From the IMG/VR virus record IMGVR_UViG_3300025896_000022: DNA of 64,000 bases, one strand, 5' to 3'. Of this stretch, positions 1,447 through 26,888 are shown piece after piece. The notes under the pieces were generated by a model. That model was given only the letters and a program-made list of their open reading frames with translations. It ran no database searches and was not told the DNA's origin. The stretch is from a virus. Its lineage: Duplodnaviria; Heunggongvirae; Uroviricota; Caudoviricetes. A program made the position numbers and the translations under genes. Every line of letters starts with the position of its first letter. The first letter of the stretch is position 1.

Positions 1447-1774
1447 TACTTTTTACAATTGATATTAACTTAATTAAACATTCAAGTTCTGCTTCTTCGT
1501 AGGTTTTGAAATTGCCTTTTGAAATATTTGATTGATGTAAACCATTTATATGGTATGTAGATATATTTCCACCATAACTATACTCTGTCATTATACAAGA
1601 GAATATTTTATACTTCTCTCTAAACCATCTGAAAGCTATTGCATTATAACCACTTCTTTCAACAGAATCAATTGGTTGAGCATCTAATATTATAGGTGTA
1701 AAACCACTACCAAAACCTTTTTCTTTTAACCATTCAAAGAATCCTAAAGATTCTAATTCATTATATATTTTCAT
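1439..1774 (-). CDS. hypothetical protein. Its N-terminal 'ELESLGF' motif recurs in ORF 2467..2790.
   Basis: 111-aa ORF. The 'YNELESLGFFEW' segment resembles 'YEQALALKELGFDE' in the 2467..2790 product. Confidence 0.4.
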   Translation of the reverse strand: MKIYNELESLGFFEWLKEKGFGSGFTPIILDAQPIDSVERSGYNAIAFRWFREKYKIFSCIMTEYSYGGNISTYHINGLHQSNISKGNFKTYEEAELECLIKLISIVKSNE

Positions 1775-2549
1775 TTGTTATGTATTTAAAAGTGAATCCA
1801 CCACATTGTTTTTGTTTTTCTTTACAGCATCTAATAATGCCTGATTTACTTATGTTAAGTTGTTTTGATGCAGTACAAATTGAATCAAATTCTTGTATAA
1901 ATGTGTTATCTAAATTATATTGTTGAATAGGTTTACCTATTTGCCCTACATGACCAAAATGAGATTGTAGTTTGTCATAACTCCATAAGTATCCTCCAGC
2001 AGATTTAGAAAAACCTCTTTTTTTAATAGAATGTCCAATAGATGATGAATGTATTCCTGTCTGTCTTTCTGCTTCTCTCAATGATATATATTCTTGTAAA
2101 AATACACCGTCTTTTGAGTATTGATAAACTTTTTTCATAGTAGATTGACAAGTTTTAGTAGTACCTTTAGTTTTACTACCAATTAATTTTTTTGTTTCAT
2201 CACTTAATGTACCTGATTTATCTAAAGTTGTTGTCATCTTGCAATTAAGTCCAGATTTACTAAGTACGTTATAGTATTCTTGCCAGTATCTTTCTCTTTC
2301 ATTTAACAAACTTTCTTTACATTCTTCAACTATAATGAAGTCATGTAGGTCAATACCATACTTATTAAATGAAGCTTTTAATCTAACTTGAGATGAACCT
2401 CCTTTAGGTTCAAAATAAGTTAATATTCTTCTTCTAATATCATTAGATTGACCTATATAAACTCTGTTATTTGGACTTGTTATTTTGTAGATTCCACAAA
2501 TCTTTACATCCTTTCTCAATTTTTCTAATTCTTTCTTCATGAGTATCAC
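1761..2549 (-). CDS. GIY-YIG family homing endonuclease
   Basis: The N-terminus 'GIYKITSPNNRVYIGQSNDIRRRILTYF' is a canonical GIY…YIG…R motif. The 262-aa size with a basic DNA-binding tail fits freestanding Seg/I-TevI-like enzymes. It overlaps the upstream ORF by 83 nt. Confidence 0.7.
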   Translation of the reverse strand: MILMKKELEKLRKDVKICGIYKITSPNNRVYIGQSNDIRRRILTYFEPKGGSSQVRLKASFNKYGIDLHDFIIVEECKESLLNERERYWQEYYNVLSKSGLNCKMTTTLDKSGTLSDETKKLIGSKTKGTTKTCQSTMKKVYQYSKDGVFLQEYISLREAERQTGIHSSSIGHSIKKRGFSKSAGGYLWSYDKLQSHFGHVGQIGKPIQQYNLDNTFIQEFDSICTASKQLNISKSGIIRCCKEKQKQCGGFTFKYITNENI

Positions 2550-5285: not shown

Positions 5286-5519
5286 CTAATTTTTGTTTAA
5301 TTTGTTTTTAATAATTTTTATTATTTGTTTAAATATCAACATATTCCAAAAAGATGCTGAAAAAATTGTCAAAAGTAGTGATGCTAAACCCATCACAAAG
5401 GCAAATGTAGATGGTTTACTCATTAAATGCAAACTTAACACAACCATTCCTATTGTAGAAATGGCTATGATAAATAAGCAAACTAATAGTAACCAAATAT
5501 TGTTTAATAATTTAGTCAT
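5286..5519 (-). CDS. small integral membrane protein with two predicted TM helices. It may be an NfeD/YqiJ-like partner of the SPFH protein.
   Basis: 77 aa and strongly hydrophobic. It is immediately downstream of the SPFH gene, separated from it by 4 nt. Confidence 0.4.
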   Translation of the reverse strand: MTKLLNNIWLLLVCLFIIAISTIGMVVLSLHLMSKPSTFAFVMGLASLLLTIFSASFWNMLIFKQIIKIIKNKLNKN

Positions 5520-7372
5520 TATATGATCATTTTTTCTTTGATTAATTTATCTACTTTTTTAGATACATATGAAATCATATCATTTGGTAGATTTTCTATG
5601 TTTGTCATTTTAATAAAATAATCAAACATCTCTTCTGAAGGTACTTCTTCATCAATTGCAATTTGAATTACTTGAAATCCTAATGCTTGTGCCATAGTAA
5701 CCTTTTTTCTGGTGTCATTGATAGCAGCTTGACCATTATATCCACTTGCTGCTGGTTGACCATCAGAAATAACAAATAATAATCCTGGATCAGGTGTTTT
5801 ATTTCTAACACGTTTAGCAACAGCATAAATTGCATCGCCATCTCTATTGTAACTTCTTGCTCTTGCAGAACCTAATGCATATGGATCCATGTTTGTTCCT
5901 GGTTCACGATAAATTCTAATAGTACAATCTTGACTTTTTTCATCTGCAGTATGACCATAAATATACAATTGAACATCAGGTTGCTTTTTAAATACTTCAT
6001 TGATGAAAATTGCTGCTTGACGTGCTTTTGGCATTCTTTCACCACAACCCATAGAACCTGATTCATCAATCAATACAGTTATATTAACTTTATTAGTTGT
6101 TACTTGACCAAATCTTTCATAAATAGTTGGCACTCTTTGAATTGCTTCTGCAAGTTTATTAGTATCTAGTCTACCTGAACGCATGGATTTCATAGAAAAC
6201 TGATAATCTTTTGCTTTACGTGAAAATAACTTAGCAAGAACTTGAGCTTTTGTACTATTAATTTTTGTTAAATCTTTTAGATATTTGTTTTTATCAGTTT
6301 CAGATTTTACAAAATAAACTTTACCATCAAATGATTCACCAGTTTTACTAAAATTATGACTTGAAGCCATTGCTCTTTTTTCTTTCATGTCGTCAGTAAA
6401 ATCATCAAAATCATCTTGAAAATCATCTGAATTATCACCATCAGGTGCATTCATCATTCCTTCCATCATTTTTGATGCTAAATCATTCATGTCAGATTTA
6501 CTTGGTTTAGGTGCTTTTCCACCAGAACCTTCATCTTCATTTTCTTCTTTACCTTCGCCTTCACCATCACCTTTTTCTTCTTCTTTCTTTTCTTCTGCAA
6601 CAATGAATTTATCAATTACACCAGAAAGATATTGAGCTTGTCTTTCACAATCTGCAGATGTAATTGGAAATCCATGTTTTTTCATGTAATTTTCAATCTG
6701 CGAAAGAGGTTTTGCAAACTCTTCTACTTCTTCATCAGTTACATGTGCTGGATACCTAAGAAATTTAGTAATAGTTTCAGTAAGTCTTTTTCCAGCATGT
6801 TCTTCTTCACCAAGTGGTTCATATGTTTTATCATATTTATACTGTTTAAATTTTTGAACAAACTTAGAATAACCTGGAAATCTATCTGCTAATTTTTTGT
6901 CAACTCTTTCAGTATTTAGTATTGAAAACATCAAATCTTTTACTGTTGTAGTAGTAGCACTATTTCGCGCATTCATGGTACGTGAGTATTCGCTTCTTGT
7001 TTGCAAGGTTGCAAGAGCTGCATTTTGAATTGCAGCACCATAAAACGCATCTAAAAGCTCTACATCATGATTCATATATTCACCATCTTCTGAACGTAAC
7101 ATGTTCAAAGGAACTGGAATAGTTGTTTTATCACTTACTGCTCTAAGTTTATTTGAATGATCAAATTTTATATCTTTTGGAACACCAATTACTCTAAACA
7201 TAGAACCAATCATTTTGGCTGCGGATCTTAAGTTTTGATTATCTCTTACAAAATAAGAAGAGTAACCTGTTCTACCAGAATCCCAATCAAACAACTTTTT
7301 ACTTGGATCATAAAAAGAATAAGCATCTTCTTCTTTTCTTTTCCACCAGTCTTTTTTAAATTTTATACTCAT
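5519..7372 (-). CDS. cobT: von Willebrand factor A (vWA) domain protein, CobT-like
   Basis: The C-terminal 'VLIDESGSMGCGERMPKARQAAIFINEVF…VISDGQP' is a vWA MIDAS (DxSGS) motif. It has an acidic low-complexity linker and is 617 aa. It sits next to a MoxR/CobS-like AAA+ gene. Confidence 0.55.
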   Translation of the reverse strand: MSIKFKKDWWKRKEEDAYSFYDPSKKLFDWDSGRTGYSSYFVRDNQNLRSAAKMIGSMFRVIGVPKDIKFDHSNKLRAVSDKTTIPVPLNMLRSEDGEYMNHDVELLDAFYGAAIQNAALATLQTRSEYSRTMNARNSATTTTVKDLMFSILNTERVDKKLADRFPGYSKFVQKFKQYKYDKTYEPLGEEEHAGKRLTETITKFLRYPAHVTDEEVEEFAKPLSQIENYMKKHGFPITSADCERQAQYLSGVIDKFIVAEEKKEEEKGDGEGEGKEENEDEGSGGKAPKPSKSDMNDLASKMMEGMMNAPDGDNSDDFQDDFDDFTDDMKEKRAMASSHNFSKTGESFDGKVYFVKSETDKNKYLKDLTKINSTKAQVLAKLFSRKAKDYQFSMKSMRSGRLDTNKLAEAIQRVPTIYERFGQVTTNKVNITVLIDESGSMGCGERMPKARQAAIFINEVFKKQPDVQLYIYGHTADEKSQDCTIRIYREPGTNMDPYALGSARARSYNRDGDAIYAVAKRVRNKTPDPGLLFVISDGQPAASGYNGQAAINDTRKKVTMAQALGFQVIQIAIDEEVPSEEMFDYFIKMTNIENLPNDMISYVSKKVDKLIKEKMII

Positions 7373-8505: not shown

Positions 8506-9780
8506 TTAAAACGCAGCAATAATTGATAATACTTTACTACGTTCAGAAGTACCAATACCATCTTCAAAAAGAGGCATAATAACACTTTGAATTGCGCTAG
8601 TAAGTTCAAAACCATCTACAATTAATCCAGCAGTTTGTAAAGTATGTCTTACTGAAACTGGAGTAGATAATTCTTGGTCTTTATATTGTTTTCTAATTTC
8701 ATTAGAAACTTTAACAATAGCAGATGCAGATTTTTCATCAACACCTGTACGAATTTTTAAGATGTTAATTTCATCTTCTTCTTGAGGATATCCTAATTCA
8801 ATAGGAAAAAATCTATCTAACAATGCTCTATCTATAGCGTTAGTACCAGAGTACTCAGAACCTAGATTAGCAGTTGCAAAAAATACAGTTTCTGGATTTA
8901 CTTGAACTTGACGATCACATTCTTCACAAGCGACATCTACAGGTAAATATCTTCTGTTATCTAAACAAGGAAACAAGATATTATTTGCAGCTAAAGGTGC
9001 TCTGTTTAACTCGTCAAGAAGTACAATGCCTCCAGATTTAATGTGTCCAACAAAAGGTGCAAATTCAAATTCTGAATGACCTAATTTACCAATTCTGTGA
9101 ACGCCTAGTAATGCTGATTGAGCATCTTGAACAGTACCCATATCTTGTATGTACAATGGTTTTGCCATTGCTTTTGCAAGGTGATTTAACAATTCTGTTT
9201 TACCTGAACCTGTAGGTCCCATAAGTAAAGTATTTTCACCTCTCAACACATTTCTCACAAGTAAGTACCAGATATCTGGTTCAATGTGAAAACCACAATC
9301 TTCCTTGGTAGGCACTGGATAATTTGCAGAAATTGTACGCTTTAAATTAGTTCCTGCAGGAAGTGCTTCACCAGCAGCAGGTAATGCAAATTTTGCATCC
9401 CAATCAAATTTGTAACCATAAGGTTCATATTTAGTTGCCATTTCTTTTGCTTTTTCCACACCAAATTCTGAATGATCAATCATATAATCAATCAAAAAGT
9501 CTACAAGTGGAATACGTGATGGATCACTAATAGGAAATACATCATTCATGTAATACATTGCTGTAATACCTTCTTTACGAATATGTAAGTGATCTGATTC
9601 AGGAAAATCATAACCATCTGCACAGAATACTGTACCTAATGGAAATTTTACAATGTCAGCAATAGGTGCTGTTATTTTAATATCTTTTACGTTGATAGGT
9701 AAACTTTTTTCAAAAGATTGACCTGCTAATGTTTCAACTTCAAAAGATGTACCGTTTAATAATGCTCTAAATAGGATCAT
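8506..9780 (-). CDS. cobS: AAA+ ATPase of the MoxR / CobS-like family
   Basis: Walker A is 'LLMGPTGSGKTELLNHLA'. Walker B / sensor is 'IVLLDELNRAPLAANNILFPCLD' followed by 'FFATANLG'. This is an AAA_5-type arrangement, and it sits next to a vWA protein. Confidence 0.65.
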   Translation of the reverse strand: MILFRALLNGTSFEVETLAGQSFEKSLPINVKDIKITAPIADIVKFPLGTVFCADGYDFPESDHLHIRKEGITAMYYMNDVFPISDPSRIPLVDFLIDYMIDHSEFGVEKAKEMATKYEPYGYKFDWDAKFALPAAGEALPAGTNLKRTISANYPVPTKEDCGFHIEPDIWYLLVRNVLRGENTLLMGPTGSGKTELLNHLAKAMAKPLYIQDMGTVQDAQSALLGVHRIGKLGHSEFEFAPFVGHIKSGGIVLLDELNRAPLAANNILFPCLDNRRYLPVDVACEECDRQVQVNPETVFFATANLGSEYSGTNAIDRALLDRFFPIELGYPQEEDEINILKIRTGVDEKSASAIVKVSNEIRKQYKDQELSTPVSVRHTLQTAGLIVDGFELTSAIQSVIMPLFEDGIGTSERSKVLSIIAAF

Positions 9781-16328: not shown

Positions 16329-16817
16329 TTAAAGTTCTGCTGTTGCTGTTGATTTAACAGTTGCATTACTTTTAACTACTACATTGTCATGTGCAATTAA
16401 CACATCTTGTTCATTACCTGTTGCGTCATAGGTAGAGAATCTTAAAATTCTTTCACCACCTAGAGTTAACTCGTCACCATCAGCACCTGCACGCTTTATG
16501 TAACTACTAATAGAAGTTTCATAATCAACATTTTTGTTGAGTTGTGCAGCGATGTTCTCAGGTAGTTGAGACTCAAGATATTCTCTGGTGACAATCTTAC
16601 CAGGAACTTGTAAACTCTTATGAGCACTAACAAAAGTCTTTAAGATTTCTGTTGTTGCACGTAATATACATGCGCGTTTTTGCTCACGTATCCAACCATC
16701 AGCACCTATACTGATTGCTGTTTGTTGCAACTGAATATAACCATATTCAGGATTTGATTTATAGTTTGTTATCAAACTATTTGACTTGCTGTTAACTACG
16801 ATTTGTACTGTAGACAT
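16329..16817 (-). CDS. hypothetical protein, paralogue A of a tandem pair
   Basis: 162 aa. Its sequence closely matches ORF 17416..17928 ('ADGWIRE…LNKNVDYETSIS.YIKRAG.DG.ELTLGGERILRF…IAHDN…'). It has its own flanking non-coding regions and terminator. Confidence 0.5.
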   Translation of the reverse strand: MSTVQIVVNSKSNSLITNYKSNPEYGYIQLQQTAISIGADGWIREQKRACILRATTEILKTFVSAHKSLQVPGKIVTREYLESQLPENIAAQLNKNVDYETSISSYIKRAGADGDELTLGGERILRFSTYDATGNEQDVLIAHDNVVVKSNATVKSTATAEL

Positions 16818-17381
16818 AACTAAATTTAATTAAAGATTAATACTAAATTCAATTGGGGGTAGAGAGTAGTATGTAGACAACCTTTTCTCAGGGTGGTTGT
16901 GTACCTCTATTCAAGTGGTTTCGAGTGGTTAAATTTATACTCCTCTGGGAAGTGGAAAAAAATTTTAATAAAGTTGTCTCCACCCTGTGTATAAAGTAGA
17001 CCACTATTTTATAACCATGTGATTATCAGTCATTTGTATTTGTAGTAAAATAATAATAAATGTTGAGAAAGAACTCAATTCAGAGTGGTTTAACTTCTAT
17101 TCAGTGGTGTAACCAAGGATATATTACCACCTATACTTATTGAATAAAGATTGATTTGATGTTGAGAAAGAACTGCTAGTTATTTAGCAGCTCAATCTCA
17201 AATCAATGGGTAGTTATTTATTAAGTTTTTTCCATTCTTTATAATCATTCAAATCAGAAAGTTCTATTTCTTTTAGTACACTTTCATATATTTCTTCAGC
17301 ATGTTTTTGCGATTTTGCAGGGTATACTAATCCCTTGACAATAAAGTATTTCATGAGTTATTTATTAAGAGTTATAAAATA

Positions 17382-17415: not shown

Positions 17416-17928
17416 CTACAATTCAGCTTTAGCAGTAGCATCTGATTTAGCAGCCATAACTTCACTGATATTATCATGCGCAATTCTTGCGTCTTGAGAT
17501 AATCCAGATGGATCATACGAAGTGAAGCGTAGTATTCTCTCACCTCCTAATGTTAATTCAACACCATCTTTTCCTGCACGTTTAATGTAAGGAGAGATAG
17601 ATGTTTCATAATCAACATTCTTATTTAATCGTGAACTATAAGATTCAGGAATCTGAGACTCCAGAAACTCGTTCACAATTATTTTACCAGGAAGTGTTAA
17701 GTTTTTACTATTTGCAACAAACTTCTCTAGTATCACAATTTCTGCACGCATTAAAGTACTGCGTGAAGATTCTCTAATCCAACCGTCTGCACTCACAGAC
17801 ATTTCAGATGAATTAAGAGTAATAAAACCATAGTCTGCATTATTTTTATACACACTGATAATTGCGCCATCTTTTCCTGGCTTAATAGAAACATTATTCA
17901 TAATAAAATATTTAATATTTAGTCGCAC
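17416..17928 (-). CDS. hypothetical protein, paralogue B of the tandem pair
   Basis: 170 aa. It matches ORF 16329..16817 over most of its length. Confidence 0.5.
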   Translation of the reverse strand: MRLNIKYFIMNNVSIKPGKDGAIISVYKNNADYGFITLNSSEMSVSADGWIRESSRSTLMRAEIVILEKFVANSKNLTLPGKIIVNEFLESQIPESYSSRLNKNVDYETSISPYIKRAGKDGVELTLGGERILRFTSYDPSGLSQDARIAHDNISEVMAAKSDATAKAEL

Positions 17929-18444
17929 TTATTAGTAGGCAGCGACTTACTCCTGTATTATTTGGGTGGAAGACAGTAGCGACTAACACCCATGTTATTA
18001 TTTATTTGAGTTAAAGTCAAACATTAATAATAAAGTAGACACTAGTGATATAACACTAGTTACAGCAAATGCTGTCATGTACATTACACGATCTGGATTA
18101 GTATTACACCAACCTCCAACTGGAGTGATAGCAATAGTTAGAATCCACAACCACATTGAGATGATGAACAACATCATCTTGAAATTTTCTCTGAGTTTCA
18201 TAATAGAAATTTTTAAAGAGTTATTAATAAAGTTAAAGACTGCCTATATGCATCATATAAATAAATCATGGATGTACAGTCCATGAGTTTTAGTCTGTCA
18301 GGTATCAACGAGTGTTGATGCTACTCTTCCTTGCAGTAGTCACGGAAGTACTTGAACGCTTCTTTCCATGACATAGCAACTATAGAGTATCCTGAGATAA
18401 AATAAATAGTACGCATATGATTACATAATTAGTCTGCATTTCAA

Positions 18445-18494
18445 GGGGGGTAGAGGGTAGATGCGCAAGACTGGGGGAGGCGTTAGGTAGGGGG
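18445..18494 (+). other. G-rich tract (G6, G3, G5, G5 runs) able to form a G-quadruplex, inside a ~360-nt structured non-coding island (18290-18650)
   Basis: Read directly: GGGGGGtagaGGGtagatgcgcaagactGGGGGaGGcgttaggtaGGGGG. The local GC is far above the genome background. Neighbouring hairpins are GCGGTG-attaa-CACCGC and CCCTAGcag…ctaCTAGGG. Confidence 0.4.
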
Positions 18495-18649
18495 TACCAC
18501 CATTCTAACACACAGTATATTTGTATTCCTCCTGTCAAAAAATATTTACAAAATTTTATTACTGCGGTGATTAACACCGCTATTCACTGCAAAAATAAAC
18601 CCTAGCAGAATTAACTACTAGGGTGATTTATGTATTACTATATAGGATA

Positions 18650-18859
18650 TTAGTTAGTGGTCGCTAATAACATATCGCGTTCTTCACTTATTTCACATTC
18701 ATAGTGCCAACTTATATCTGTATCAAATGTAAGTTTAATAAGAGTACCGCCATCTGCTGTTGCTTGAACACCTATTACTTGTCTACCTACTTGGTCTAAA
18801 TCTGTTTTTAAATATACTATTTGACCAAAATCAAAATTACTAGTTACTCTTATACTCAT
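18650..18859 (-). CDS. hypothetical protein
   Basis: 69-aa ORF. Confidence 0.35.
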   Translation of the reverse strand: MSIRVTSNFDFGQIVYLKTDLDQVGRQVIGVQATADGGTLIKLTFDTDISWHYECEISEERDMLLATTN

Positions 18860-19122: not shown

Positions 19123-19141
19123 ATTTATATTTTTTTAATTT

Positions 19142-19194
19142 TTTACAAATATATTATAAATTTGTAAAAGTTAAACTTTATTTTATATATTTGT
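19142..19194 (+). promoter_or_regulatory. Divergent promoter region. A 10-bp perfect palindrome (TTTTACAAAT-9 nt-ATTTGTAAAA) overlaps a Bacteroidetes-type promoter (-33 TTTG at 19162-19165, -7 TATATTTG at 19187-19194, 21-nt spacing) for the plus-strand operon that starts at 19219.
   Basis: Read directly. The -7 element matches the TAnnTTTG consensus of Bacteroidetes sigma-A promoters. This is the point where transcription orientation switches. Confidence 0.45.
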
Positions 19195-19218
19195 GGTGTA
19201 ATTAATAACTATTTAAAT

Positions 19219-20572: not shown

Positions 20573-20929
20573 GGGGATGACTGGTTTTGACAGGTCATTA
20601 GTAAGTAGTACAATCAGCCAGAGAGATAACTGTAAACTAAGGTGAATTTAATAAATGACAACAAAGTAATTTCGTTAGATGCTGACCAAGTTAGTGCTAA
20701 CATGAGCAAAGTTTTTTCATTAATTAATGCAGATGTCGAAGAGTTAGAAATAGCTGCGTAGTAAGCATCAACAAGATTTATCAGTTCGATTAAACTGATT
20801 GGTGGTTTTGTCTACATTAGTAGATCCCAGAGTGCTCCTGTAGACTCTTTAAATAAGTATGGGTGCAAAAGCTGTATAAATTGTATTATTGACCATGGTT
20901 TGGACAGGGGTTCGACTCCCCTCATCTCC
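20573..20929 (+). ncRNA. ssrA: tmRNA (ssrA-like, one-piece) carried by the phage
   Basis: The 5' end GGGGATGACTGGTTTTGACAGG matches the tmRNA consensus GGGGnUGnnnnGGnUUCGACnGG. The 3' end GGACAGGGGTTCGACTCCCCTCATCTCCA forms a T-arm (AGGGG-TTCGACT-CCCCT). Its acceptor strand CATCTCC pairs 7/7 (one G·U) with the 5' GGGGATG. The internal tag frame ends …GCA GAT GTC GAA GAG TTA GAA ATA GCT GCG TAG TAA (20729-20764), giving the putative tag A-DVEELEIAA. Confidence 0.7.
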
Positions 20930-21019
20930 ACAAGTGTATGTTATTATAGACAATATCTTATCTATTGTCTATAATAACACACATTAATAACTAATATATT
21001 AGTTAAAAACCTAACAACA

Positions 21020-23444: not shown

Positions 23445-23634
23445 TATTATGAAACTAAATAGATTATACAACTGGTTATTTCATTATAACCCACATACAG
23501 AAAATTGGAATGCATTTCATAGAGATGACCAATCTGCATACTGGAATAAAACAGAAAAAACACATCCTGTATTTACAGCAAAAGAATTTAATGAGTTAAT
23601 AAAAATATTACACACCTCAAATTTATGTATATAA
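23425..23634 (+). CDS. hypothetical protein
   Basis: 69-aa ORF overlapping both neighbours. Confidence 0.3.
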   Translation: MLTTKCNIMKLNRLYNWLFHYNPHTENWNAFHRDDQSAYWNKTEKTHPVFTAKEFNELIKILHTSNLCI

Positions 23635-26600
23635 GTGTACCAACTCATGATTGTGAATTAGATTCATGGTCTGTAACAGACTTTGAAACAAGGGAATTGT
23701 TTGTAGAGTTTCTGACAAAAATGTTCAAGGTTCCTGGTACTTATGAATTTGATGAATGTTCTAACAAGTTTAACGAACAAGCACAGTTATTTAATAAAAA
23801 TAATAAAGTATATTGTGTATCACCTTTACGTTCAAAAGATTATGTAACGTATTGGGATGACCAAAAAGCAAAATGTAGATATGGAGTTATATATAAAAGT
23901 AATGGAAAGACTTGGTATTTAACTAGAGAATATTACATGTGGTTAAATTTTTTGCCTATATATGATAAAGAAGAAGCACGATTTGGATTTGCAAAAGTCA
24001 GAGACGCTCAGTATCATATGGCATTATATGAAGAACTTGCTAGACATTCTTATAAGCATGTTGTTATATTAAAGAAACGTCAGATTGCGTCAAGTTATTA
24101 TCATGGTGCAAAAATGATAAATTACTTTTGGTTTGAAGAAGGTTCTATTAGTAAAATGGCAGGTTCACTTAAAGACTATATTAATGAAAAAGGTACTTGG
24201 CGTTTTCTTGAAGAATATAGAAACTTTTTAAATACTTATACAGCATGGTACAGACCATGTACTCCAGATAAAGTACTTAACTGGGAACAAAAAATTGAAA
24301 TTAATCAAGGTGGTAAAAAACGAGATGTTGGTTTAAAATCAGTTATATTTGGATTAGTACTTGATAAAGATCCTACAAATGGTGTAGGTGGACCATGTAC
24401 ATTATTTTTTCATGAAGAAGCAGGTATTGCACCTAAGATGAATATGACAATGGAATACTTGTTGCCTGCAATGAAATCGGGTATGATATATACTGGTCAA
24501 TTTATTGCAGCAGGTTCAGTAGGAGATTTAGCACAATGTGAACCATTGCGTGAAATGTTAATGAATCCAGATGGTAAAGACATTCTTGCTGTTGAAACTA
24601 ATTTGATTAATGATAAAGGTGAGATTGGAATGTGCGGATTATTTATTCCAGAACAATGGTCAATGTTACCTTGTATTGATGAATATGGTAATTCACAAGT
24701 TGAACTTGCATTAGAAATGATTCTTGCAGAAAGAATAGTATGGAAAAAGAAACTTAAACCAGATGATTATCAACTTCGTATTTCTCAGAAACCTATTAAC
24801 ATTGCTGAAGCATTTGCACATAGAACAAGATCTGTATTTCCATTACACTTGGTAACACAACAACTTAGAAGAATTGAAGAAGGAGAATATTATAAAGAAT
24901 TTTTAGATTTAAATCGTGATGAAACTGGTAAAGTAGTTGCTAAAGAATCTAAAAAAATACCAATATCTGAATTTCCATTATCATCAAAAACTGAAGATAA
25001 AGAAGGTGTTTTAGTTGTATGGGAAAGACCACATAAAGATCCAATATTTGGAATGTATTACGCATCTGTCGATCCAGTTGCTGAAGGAAAGGCAGAGCAT
25101 GTTGATAATATGCTCTATACACCAAAAGGTAGAAAAAGAATAGGTGATATTCAAATAGGTGATAAAGTAACTGGTTCTAATGGAGAAGTTATTAATGTGA
25201 TTGGTGTTTACCCACAAGGAGTTAAAAAAATGTGTAAAATAACGTTTAGTGATGGACATAGTATTAAAGTATGTGAAGATCATTTATGGAATGTAAAATT
25301 AAATGGCGGAACAAAAGGATATATTACACTTTCTGTAAAAGATTTATTAAACAATACTAAAACAATTACATATAATGGAACAGGTAGAAATACTAAAAAA
25401 GAATATACAATTTCTACTTATTATAAAGATAAACAAAATAGAAATAAATGGTCAATACCAATAGTTAAACCTATTAGTTTTGATTTTGGTAAAATATTAC
25501 CTGTTAATCCTTATTTACTAGGTTTACTATTAGGTGATGGAGGATTATCTCAAAAATCTATTAGATTTAGTACAGTTGACACTGAGTTAATAAATTCTAT
25601 TGAACACATATTAGAAGATGACTTATTAATAAAAAAAGTTAAAAATTCAAATTGTGATTATACAATTATTACAAAAGTTGGTTCAAGAAATTCATTAACT
25701 AAAAGATTAAAAGAATTAGGTTTAAAAGGTAAAAGGTCCGAAGATAAATTTATACCACAAGAATACCTATATGCATTAGGATCTTGTAGATTATCTTTAT
25801 TACAAGGATTAATGGATACAGATGGTTCTTATTCAAATCATGGAGCAGAATTTTACTCATCATCAAAAAAATTAGCTTATCAAGTTGTTGAATTAGTACA
25901 ATCATTAGGAGGAATAGCAAAAATAAGATGTAAAAAAACAACTCATTTAGATTCTTATATTGTAAGAGTATTATTGCCTGAATATCTTAATCCTTTTATA
26001 CTAAAAAGAAAAAGAGAAATATATAAACCATCAAAAGTATTTAGCAAATACATAACAAATATAGAATACATTAATGACGCAGAAGCAATATGTATATCTG
26101 TTGATGCTCTTGATAATCTTTATGTTACGGAACATGCTATAGTTACACATAACACAACAACATCAGATTCATTATGTTCTATTTATGTATATAAAACATC
26201 TCAAGAAATTACAACACATAAATCTGATGGCACAATTGAATCTAATATTGAACGCGATAAAATTGTAGCTGCATGGTGTGGTAGATTTGATGATTTAAAT
26301 AAAACACATGAAAGACTTGAGTTAATTATTGAATGGTATAATGCGTGGACAATATGTGAAAATAACGTTAGTGCATTTATTCAGCATATGATTGCGCGTA
26401 GAAAACAAAAGTATTTAGTACCAAAAAATCAAATTATGTTTCTTAAAGAAATACAAGCAAACATGAATGTATTTCAAGAATATGGTTGGAAAAATGTTGG
26501 TACTATGTTTAAAGTAAATATTATACCATATGGTAAACAATTTCTTGAAGAAGAATTAGATTATGAAACTAAAACAGATGGTACTATTGTCAAAACTACA

Positions 26601-26888
26601 TATGGTGTAGAAAGAATACCAGACATCATGTTGTTAAAAGAAATGGCAGCATATAGAGATGGATTAAACGTGGATAGGATTATTGCTTTTTGTGCATTAG
26701 TTGCATTTGCAAAAGTGCAAGAATCCAATCGTGGTTACACTAAACGTGTTGAAAGAGAAGATGATAATTTGCAAAAGTCAAATAAAAATGCTAAATTGAG
26801 AGTGAGTCCATTTAGACATATGGGTGGTTCATATTCAATTAATTCATCTATGAGAAAACCTCATAATCCTTTTAAAAACATAAGATAA
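23625..26888 (+). CDS. terL: terminase large subunit (TerL) with an in-frame intein of about 347 aa carrying a LAGLIDADG homing endonuclease
   Basis: It has an ATPase-like N-terminal half and a Walker-B-like 'CTLFFHEEAG'. The nuclease-domain first catalytic motif 'SVDPVAEGK…' is interrupted by an intein. The intein shows a Hint N-block (GRKRIGDIQIGDKVTGSNGEVINV), two LAGLIDADG motifs (LLGLLLGDGGL; LQGLMDTDGSY) and a C-terminal '…VTHN|T' junction. The extein resumes 'TTTSDSLCSIYVY', matching the 'D.sa' part of the terminase nuclease motif. Confidence 0.7.
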   Translation: MYISVPTHDCELDSWSVTDFETRELFVEFLTKMFKVPGTYEFDECSNKFNEQAQLFNKNNKVYCVSPLRSKDYVTYWDDQKAKCRYGVIYKSNGKTWYLTREYYMWLNFLPIYDKEEARFGFAKVRDAQYHMALYEELARHSYKHVVILKKRQIASSYYHGAKMINYFWFEEGSISKMAGSLKDYINEKGTWRFLEEYRNFLNTYTAWYRPCTPDKVLNWEQKIEINQGGKKRDVGLKSVIFGLVLDKDPTNGVGGPCTLFFHEEAGIAPKMNMTMEYLLPAMKSGMIYTGQFIAAGSVGDLAQCEPLREMLMNPDGKDILAVETNLINDKGEIGMCGLFIPEQWSMLPCIDEYGNSQVELALEMILAERIVWKKKLKPDDYQLRISQKPINIAEAFAHRTRSVFPLHLVTQQLRRIEEGEYYKEFLDLNRDETGKVVAKESKKIPISEFPLSSKTEDKEGVLVVWERPHKDPIFGMYYASVDPVAEGKAEHVDNMLYTPKGRKRIGDIQIGDKVTGSNGEVINVIGVYPQGVKKMCKITFSDGHSIKVCEDHLWNVKLNGGTKGYITLSVKDLLNNTKTITYNGTGRNTKKEYTISTYYKDKQNRNKWSIPIVKPISFDFGKILPVNPYLLGLLLGDGGLSQKSIRFSTVDTELINSIEHILEDDLLIKKVKNSNCDYTIITKVGSRNSLTKRLKELGLKGKRSEDKFIPQEYLYALGSCRLSLLQGLMDTDGSYSNHGAEFYSSSKKLAYQVVELVQSLGGIAKIRCKKTTHLDSYIVRVLLPEYLNPFILKRKREIYKPSKVFSKYITNIEYINDAEAICISVDALDNLYVTEHAIVTHNTTTSDSLCSIYVYKTSQEITTHKSDGTIESNIERDKIVAAWCGRFDDLNKTHERLELIIEWYNAWTICENNVSAFIQHMIARRKQKYLVPKNQIMFLKEIQANMNVFQEYGWKNVGTMFKVNIIPYGKQFLEEELDYETKTDGTIVKTTYGVERIPDIMLLKEMAAYRDGLNVDRIIAFCALVAFAKVQESNRGYTKRVEREDDNLQKSNKNAKLRVSPFRHMGGSYSINSSMRKPHNPFKNIR
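25110..26153 (+). mobile_element. intein (Hint domain plus LAGLIDADG endonuclease) within terL. The C-terminal boundary is well defined (His-Asn 26148-26153, then Thr+1). The N-terminal boundary is approximate.
   Basis: See the TerL entry. The residue at the inferred N-terminal junction is not a canonical Cys/Ser, so the exact start may lie a few codons away. Confidence 0.6.

Follow-up and report, generated by a model that had tools for sequence, protein, structure and literature searches.

A candidate C-rich cis-regulatory leader of a small phage gene, read on the strand opposite a G-run island

The nut sites of lambdoid phages are few per genome, lie in sense orientation in the early, terminator-rich region, and are near-identical within a phage and different between phages. 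Phage-specific promoters, in turn, are of the T7/T3/SP6-type polymerase or the T4 MotA-box type. The sites at which Rho loads (rut sites, such as lambda tR1 rutA/rutB and those of the mgtA, corA and rho leaders) are C-rich, G-poor, unstructured segments of the sense strand, and they are normally poorly conserved. In E. coli they have been described by a bubble of C over G longer than 78, an area above 700 and a (YC)N9-13 chain with four or more members, thresholds beyond which every template tested showed Rho-dependent termination (PMC6144790). Lastly, the PeSLs have been described as repeats that combine a terminator with a promoter and through which indels arise in hyperplastic regions (PMC4122927). 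The locus compared here with these systems belongs to a tailed phage (Caudoviricetes; IMG/VR record IMGVR_UViG_3300025896_000022), and the window, that is, the whole stretch of 64,000 nucleotides (nt) that was analysed, is a segment of 29% GC with genes for the large terminase, the portal and the major head protein. The element lies in a gap of 448 nt between the minus-strand genes 17998-18201 and 18650-18859, where a first-pass annotation had seen a structured non-coding island with G-quadruplex potential (18290-18650). In the best reading of the data presented below, the island is a conserved, unstructured, C-rich cis-regulatory region, located on the sense strand ahead of a 31-codon gene, and it belongs to no known family.

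On the plus strand, the island shows runs of G6 (18445-18450), G3 (18455-18457, within GAGGG), G5 (18473-18477) and G5 (18490-18494), just as first described. It is a true outlier in composition, since the plus strand of the window contains six G5+ runs, and three of these fall inside the 50 nt 18445-18494. When the window was shuffled 1000 times by single nucleotides, three or more such runs within 50 nt never occurred, and two or more occurred in 17 shuffles. The GC fraction near the island is 0.45-0.46, against 0.29 window-wide, and no C5+ run exists on the plus strand of the entire window. The functional strand is likely the other one, the C-rich minus strand, a point that was overlooked in the first-pass annotation. 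Read in that sense, the tract has a C fraction of 0.58 and a G fraction of 0.08 (0.38-0.70 and 0.04-0.22, respectively, across 23 homologues), and nearly all of the wider relatives carry two to four runs of C5-7 clustered on the gene-sense strand, directly upstream of a small open reading frame (ORF).

Phages deposited in GenBank gave no match, either by megablast and blastn of the region or by tblastn of the neighbouring protein of 161 amino acids (aa) and of another protein of the window; homologous loci (given L numbers here) are present in IMG/VR and in metagenome contigs. Within the close group the entire gap aligns at 71-88% identity, with invariant G runs and variable linkers. The wider relatives, which were gathered by an alignment search with the neighbouring paralogous protein of ~160 aa, share 44-83% protein identity and have GC fractions of 0.32-0.46 (0.30-0.46 for the clade overall). 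A model of the leader built from its sequence only, R1, yields a single strong match per related phage locus, with E values of 1e-12 to 1e-23, and none in the control loci (~50 unrelated viral loci, GC-rich bacterial loci and one segment of a Bacteroidota chromosome), which bears out the conservation of the tract in related phages. When 185,579 genomes of bacteria and archaea, with one genome per bacterial species, were scanned for the pattern, nine chance matches came up, all of them in GC-rich taxa. Given that R1 recognises every related locus and no control, and that the bacterial scan remained at the level of chance, the element is clade-specific and inherited, not imported. The idea that it was acquired from elsewhere is thus discarded, the more so as the element keeps the same syntenic place across the phage clade, and no evidence was found for the replication-origin or packaging role that had also been suggested. 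The leader is almost free of indels throughout the clade; in L006 (contig IMGVR_UViG_3300031952_000005, 4735-4826) an insertion of 89 nt within it replaces the first C run. This insertion resembles a partial duplication of the AT-rich, promoter-like block that lies upstream.

Judging from the alignments, what is conserved in the leader is primary sequence and spacing, not a fold. In 16 diverse sequences the C columns of the second and third runs are invariant, and so is the CAG at 18436-18434, located 8 nt past the last run in the window and 8-10 nt past it clade-wide, while columns T12, G13, A20, G21 and A22 of the purine-rich block that precedes the runs are at least 90% conserved. RNAalifold, applied to 22 distinct homologues, returned a consensus of 0.0 kcal/mol in the sense orientation and of -0.13 in the antisense one, with no helix in the tract, and on nine close relatives it likewise found no conserved pairing there. 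The covariance models of Rfam 15, run at gathering thresholds on the whole window, matched only the tmRNA at 20573-20933, which is also the only gene that ARAGORN reports (at 20573), and a permissive search of the region (E<=10) gave chance-level hits well below gathering, such as mir-3747 with 29.6 bits against 63. Two pairings were tried by eye, a long-range one in which the last C run would pair with the GGTGGTA block and a local GGTA-CCCCC-TACC hairpin; both are broken by substitutions in the relatives and neither has any counterpart in RNAalifold. The absence of a consensus helix on either strand, the broken pairings and the lack of an Rfam match leave a structured RNA unsupported, and the hairpins that flank the tract are independent, terminator-type elements and not parts of one fold. 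Of the original interpretation, therefore, the non-coding tract, its unusual composition and its conservation in related phages stand, whereas the structure, the foreign origin and the origin or packaging function do not.

The gene that follows the tract was not flagged in the first-pass annotation. By the evidence of its homologues, the 31-aa ORF 18416-18321 is a real, conserved small gene: an ORF of 29-33 aa is found in 23/23 of the sequences examined, its variable sites are concentrated in third codon positions (15, against 7 and 8 at the others), and its start lies 27-32 nt past the last C run in all 23 sequences (28 nt in the window). The exact sequence is not on record in the look-up that was made, nor was it found among recorded gene calls. 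The peptide has a hydrophobic N-terminal half, with a stretch of ~14-15 residues, and a charged tail. Directly after the last C run, another ATG (TTG in the group of the window, 18442-18440, minus strand) is conserved in the homologues; the ORF that it opens is variable in frame and in length (1 to 66 codons), and L094 and L095 are the only cases in which it shares the frame of the small gene.

Part of the tract is used more than once. Its 3' end, CTACCCTCTACCCCC, recurs on the same strand, with three matches in 64 kb versus 0.36 expected, each ahead of a gene (Table 1). The two further genes, 16329-16817 and 17416-17901 (both minus), encode paralogues that are 55% identical and belong to a family of more than 100 metagenomic members, for which no Pfam domain is recognised. 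The third copy sits within a GGGTG...CACCC hairpin, and in L058 and L006 the sequence at its position forms the loop and the 3' arm of a perfect hairpin, GGGTGGTA-N8-TACCACCC. Related phages have two to five copies each, always in sense orientation with respect to the next gene. The block of 8-10 nt before the run is common to the copies of one genome and differs among genomes, so that the copies evolve in concert: it reads CTACYCTCTA in the window, CAACACCTAWA in L087, ACCCTKTA in L092, CAACCCAYWA in L097, CACCACA in L098/L101, ACAGCA in L099 and ACGTCA in L095, and a direct contrast between phages is that of CTACCCTCTA with CAACACCTATA. Over the 12 nt before the run, the mean match is 7.6/12 within a genome and 5.5/12 between genomes (permutation 0/20000). 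Being specific to each genome, the motif suggests that these genes are connected by a factor that the phage encodes, or else by gene conversion. Homology between the island and the 16855 copy over a whole region of 75 nt was also considered by eye and was given up, as R1 fails to recover that copy in the window and detects such copies in relatives only weakly and in part. Several repeats of words such as CCACT(C)TGAATAGAGG and CCACCCTGAGAAAAGG are visible by eye in the extended non-coding sequence that precedes the 162-aa gene (16880-17200, minus strand).

With regard to its composition, the tract is the strongest of the 573 minus-sense bubbles of C over G in the 64 kb. Its bubble spans 109 window starts with an area of 1737, %C-%G peaks at 30.8, and the longest (YC)N9-13 chain has 4 members. 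It thereby exceeds the rut bubble descriptors and equals the one for YC chains, which were derived from E. coli, the probable host here being a member of the Bacteroidota. Because this is the composition of a Rho-loading site, the tract could govern transcription into the unit that follows, in a region in which every gene has terminators on either side. As in the known rut sites, the C-rich, G-poor, unstructured segment is on the sense strand, between a likely promoter and a gene, and it is untranslated, the 65-aa frame across it not being kept in relatives. The excess of C over G runs into the variable linkers, which fits a property of the single strand better than it fits a binding site in duplex DNA.

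These features can be arranged into a model of how the region might work. A minus-strand unit would extend from ~18560 to 18256 and would consist of an AT-rich, promoter-like block, the purine-rich block, the C-rich tract, the 31-codon gene and two hairpins, the second an intrinsic terminator; the control region upstream of the gene would occupy ~100 nt, and the G-run island would be no more than its antisense image. The tract would form the transcribed 5' leader of that gene, and it would act as single-stranded RNA, loading Rho, a specific protein or both, and in this way it would control entry into a unit that is bracketed by terminators. A recognition motif, made up of the final C run and the 8-10 nt that precede it, would link the unit to the two paralogous genes of ~160 aa. 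We infer the transcription of the tract, the binding of Rho or of a specific protein and the regulatory outcome, and we propose with moderate confidence that the tract is such a transcribed, unstructured 5' leader, a cis-acting control region bound by Rho or another protein. It is favoured over the alternatives because of the rut-like composition, the C enrichment of the linkers and the presence of the AT-rich block upstream.

That AT-rich block is nearly invariant within the close group. In L003/L063 it reads TATTTTTG, an exact TAnnTTTG, and the copy in the window (18544-18536) agrees with this at 7/8 positions; part of it is duplicated in the insertion of L006, and part is deleted in L010, where one box is retained. 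An exact TAnnTTTG box, TATATTTG, also occurs at 18516-18523 on the plus strand, facing away from the island, and its final G is variable in relatives. The window shows no enrichment of the pattern TAnnTTTG (50 matches on one strand and 67 on the other, versus ~47 expected), and TTTGGTAAATATTTTT, which was considered as a generic promoter motif, was rejected for the same reason (15 matches versus 11 expected in the window).

All three of the hairpins named at the outset are present, namely ATCAAC-gagt-GTTGAT at 18304-18319, GCGGTG-attaa-CACCGC at 18564-18580 and CCCTAG...CTAGGG at 18600-18623, and a terminator scan of the region found six sites, versus 0.3 expected, the first and the last of these hairpins among them. 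A GC-containing stem-loop followed by a U tract, after a gene and on its sense strand, as expected of an intrinsic terminator, occurs at 18624-18599 and at 18286-18266. The former has 10 pairs and then a T run, and relatives carry equivalent GC-rich hairpins with a T run; it closes the gene upstream of the unit, in a neighbourhood in which all genes are on the minus strand. As read from the alignment, the stem of L001/L003 type (GGUG...CGCC) that corresponds to the middle hairpin pairs, via G-U, on the minus-sense strand only. Hairpin 1, at the end of the small gene, shows compensatory double changes at 3/7 pairs among eight close relatives, and distant relatives have a hairpin of different sequence at the same position. 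Hairpin 2, which came from the terminator scan, has compensatory changes at 3/7 pairs as well, so that the two together have them at 6/14. The flanking hairpins are, in short, separate terminator-like elements that bracket a transcription unit of ~300 nt (Table 1). Between hairpins 1 and 2, a word of the form (C)CTGNNCAGG(A)C (18293-18303, minus strand, and L076-L102) resembles the CAG(G)AC that comes after the last C run; in the window the two words both read CAGACTAA.

Table 1. Features of the minus-strand unit and of the other copies of its motif (positions in the window)
Feature	Position	Strand	Remarks
Intrinsic terminator of the upstream 69-aa gene (18650-18859)	18599-18624	minus	ACCCTAGTAG-TTAATT-CTGCTAGGGT, then TTATTTTT
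Second short hairpin, GCGGTG-TTAAT-CACCGC	18564-18580	minus	Present in all close relatives
AT-rich block, ATAAAATTTTGTAAATATTTTTTG	18536-18560	minus	Boxes AAAATTTTG and TATTTTTTG resemble the Bacteroidota -7 element; candidate host-type promoter
Purine-rich block, AAATATACTGTGTGTTAGAATGGTGGTA, ending in GGTGGTA	18495-18522	minus	Clade consensus TG..GAGAATG.G.GTA; covered by model R1
C-rich, G-poor tract	18445-18494	minus	C runs at 18494-18490, 18477-18473 and 18450-18445
Motif: genome-specific block and last C run (CTACCCTCTACCCCCC), then TTGAAATG, then invariant CAG	18434-18460	minus	
Small gene, 31 aa, MRTIYFISGYSIVAMSWKEAFKYFRDYCKEE	18321-18416	minus	Homologues, third-position variation, fixed spacing
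Hairpin 1 (overlaps the small-gene stop codon)	18301-18322	minus	Conserved stem, without a U tract
Conserved word ACCTGACAGAC (CCTGCGCAGGAC in distant relatives)	18293-18303	minus	Between the two hairpins, in all sequences listed
Hairpin 2 with T-rich tail (TCATGGACTGTACATCCATGA TTTATTTATA)	18256-18286	minus	Intrinsic terminator closing the small-gene unit
Second copy of the motif, CTACTCTCTACCCCC	16855-16869	minus	0 mismatches; ATG of gene 16329-16817 (162 aa) lies 37 nt downstream
Degenerate third copy of the motif, CTACTGTCTTCCACC	17965-17979	minus	3 mismatches; upstream of the 161-aa paralogue 17416-17901

Several observations weigh against the transcribed, Rho- or protein-binding leader. 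The invariance of the C runs and of the CAG, base by base, is more than a generic rut site requires: here the runs, their spacing and several adjacent bases are invariant across a diverse clade, and, unlike a rut site, part of the element is reused before other genes together with a genome-specific block. The motif copies before the paralogous genes are weak, partial R1 matches (E 0.013-0.35), and the permutation value given above is too optimistic, because the genomes are related and are estimated to represent ~7 independent lineages. The AT-rich block lacks a convincing -33 element, no match to TTG-N17-22-TAnnTTTG is consistent across the leaders of the clade, and the more distant groups offer no clear alignment of the block. 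As for a partner protein, the AlphaFold model of the ~160-aa protein (pLDDT 88) has no significant fold match in the PDB, with only a weak, OB-fold-like resemblance.

The alternative that fares best, one that we consider distinctly less probable than the leader and yet a real contender, is that the tract acts as duplex DNA, a promoter or operator specific to this phage or module, to which a transcription factor or a polymerase specificity element encoded by the phage would bind. Initiation would then take place near the invariant CAG, giving leaders of 17-55 nt, and the two upstream C runs would be extra binding sites. Similarity within a genome combined with divergence between genomes is the very pattern of phage-specific promoters, with which the motif also shares a length of ~25 nt, an invariant core joined to a genome-specific block, and a fixed short distance from genes; it stands 28-64 nt before the ATG of three genes of the window and ahead of several genes in each related genome, always in sense orientation and often just past a terminator-like hairpin, the CAG follows the run at a fixed 8-10 nt, and the canonical TTG-N17-22-TAnnTTTG is not consistently present in the leaders. 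Against this, the three copies in 64 kb hardly look like a genome-wide promoter class, and the relatives of 120 kb and 124 kb have two exact matches of their own variant among the matches listed, both within the same small gene module. No RNA polymerase, sigma factor or activator was found among the tested proteins of the window, which covers about half of the genome. In addition, a protein that binds the duplex has no need for the asymmetry of C over G through the linkers, and the conserved AT-rich block upstream would be left without a role.

Another way of looking at the motif, which we put forward only tentatively, is as a functional counterpart of the N/nut system, in phages of hosts that do not initiate translation by Shine-Dalgarno pairing: a linear, structure-free recognition site, made of the C run and the phage-specific block of 8-10 nt, that would be read by a factor from the same module (the 31-aa peptide or the ~160-aa paralogues) for processive antitermination or for autoregulation. 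The likeness to lambdoid nut sites lies in the small number of sites per genome, in their sense orientation within a terminator-rich early region, in the motif, which matches within a genome and differs between genomes, and in the location of one copy immediately upstream of a small phage gene. Unlike the lambdoid sites, the element is linear and unstructured, with no hairpin of the boxB type according to RNAalifold; no boxA-like element was identified, and the adjacent protein, of 31 aa, is not arginine-rich. If the element were such a counterpart, the leader with its several runs might also serve as a Rho-loading site of unusual strength, one masked by the factor.

An improbable reading, although one compatible with a regulatory role and not exclusive of it, is that the motif is mainly a substrate for recombination, similar to PeSLs, and that its uniformity within a genome comes from gene conversion at the boundaries of cassettes. 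Small, variable genes are flanked by the copies, which are in direct orientation to each other; some of the copies form part of a terminator-like hairpin right after a stop codon, and L001, L010 and L058 have extra small genes, each with a copy ahead. This recalls the PeSL cassettes of T4-type phages (PMC2839356, PMC4122927), in which a short intergenic repeat is likewise found with small genes in a variable early region and is, as here, sometimes fused to a terminator hairpin. Unlike those cassettes, the motif has no host-type promoter consensus and is limited to 2-5 copies in one module, and PeSLs have no counterpart of the multi-run tract, of which the island copy has an extra ~60 nt. The block that is shared covers ~15 nt only, the flanks of the copies not being homogenised, and the conservation of a copy at fixed spacing, even where the neighbouring protein is just 44-48% identical, argues for function in the island and not for mere homology. 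Gene conversion between cassette boundaries may nonetheless, on this comparison, contribute to the similarity of the motif within genomes.

Slightly less probable again is the notion, derived from the original description, that the G runs of the plus strand, which is the template strand, fold as a G-quadruplex and work at the level of DNA as a switch or a roadblock to transcription or replication. For the sequence of the window the quadruplex potential holds: a G4Hunter-type score (our own implementation, in which a high score begins at ~1.5) reaches 1.66 in a span of 50 nt, the next best site in the window being at 0.70, and 1.92 in one of 25 nt. As in known G-quadruplex promoter and leader elements, the G runs are clustered, and no other columns are as well conserved; L087-type relatives have four such runs. 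For the clade it does not hold, since the number of runs of at least four varies with lineage among two, three and four, with two only in the distant group, and L006 has lost one through its insertion of 89 nt; a conserved quadruplex of four tracts is unlikely for this reason. The loops, of 4, 15 and 12 nt, are long and do not follow the canonical G3+N1-7 pattern, and the copy at 16855-16869 has a lone G5 run. Nor would a quadruplex account for the conservation of the non-G positions around the runs or for their constant distance from the ATG.

We regard as very improbable a structured non-coding or antisense RNA on the plus strand, such as a type I antitoxin whose toxin would be the small ORF. 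The hydrophobic half and charged tail of the adjoining peptide might suggest a toxin, and the fold of the whole 448-nt gap has z scores of -2.8 (plus) and -3.2 (minus), but these scores are driven by the flanking hairpins, the hydrophobic stretch is too short for a membrane helix, the tract has neither a conserved plus-strand helix nor an Rfam match, no conserved plus-strand promoter box is present in 18290-18445, and the same motif also stands ahead of the 160-aa genes. Finally, that the 65-aa ORF 18380-18577 (minus) is a genuine gene hardly deserves consideration, and on comparative grounds it is spurious, as its composition had already suggested: it is open in the window, which means little in C-rich sequence that is intrinsically poor in stops, it has no Pfam or PHROG match, its frame is interrupted or changed in relatives, with stop-free spans of 13 to 111 codons, and part of it is shared, in a different frame, with the conserved 31-aa gene.

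The phages of this clade are uncultured, their contigs come from freshwater samples, and they probably infect Bacteroidota. No Shine-Dalgarno sequence precedes any gene of the window, and genes without one have been described in Bacteroidia (PMC6847099). A full promoter, TTTG-N21-TATATTTG, is found at 19157-19193 (plus) in the divergent junction of two gene blocks (19123-19218), and the same region contains a TATATTTG box on the minus strand, starting at 19153. A homologue of the ~160-aa protein, of 268 aa and with a hydrophobic C-terminal tail, is encoded in L103 (8001-8807), a scaffold of 1.09 Mb with genes typical of Bacteroidota; this homologue is without a C-run leader.

Other features of the window were noted in passing. 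The tmRNA gene (20573-20933, plus; Rfam RF00023, 85 bits) encodes, according to ARAGORN, the tag peptide ADQVSANMSKVFSLINADVEELEIAA. The large terminase (23625-26888, plus; 1087 aa) contains an intein, with Hint at residues 503-546 and LAGLIDADG_3 at 721-778, and its PHROG matches fall to unrelated families that bear inteins. A free-standing homing endonuclease gene of the GIY-YIG/NUMOD type is located at 1761-2549 (minus), and an AAA+ ATPase of the MoxR/CbbQ type and a VWA/CobT-like protein, a pair common in aquatic phages, are encoded at 8506-9780 and 5519-7372 (both minus).

If the tract proves to be merely a local promoter, its interest would be modest. The case illustrates that a "G-quadruplex island" can be the antisense image of an element that belongs to the sense strand. 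Gene regulation in the phages of Bacteroidota is almost unexplored, in hosts that have unusual promoters and do not use Shine-Dalgarno pairing, and in this setting the element offers a handle, open to mutation, on a phage-specific regulatory circuit, as well as a candidate for a strong Rho-loading site beyond the model organisms.

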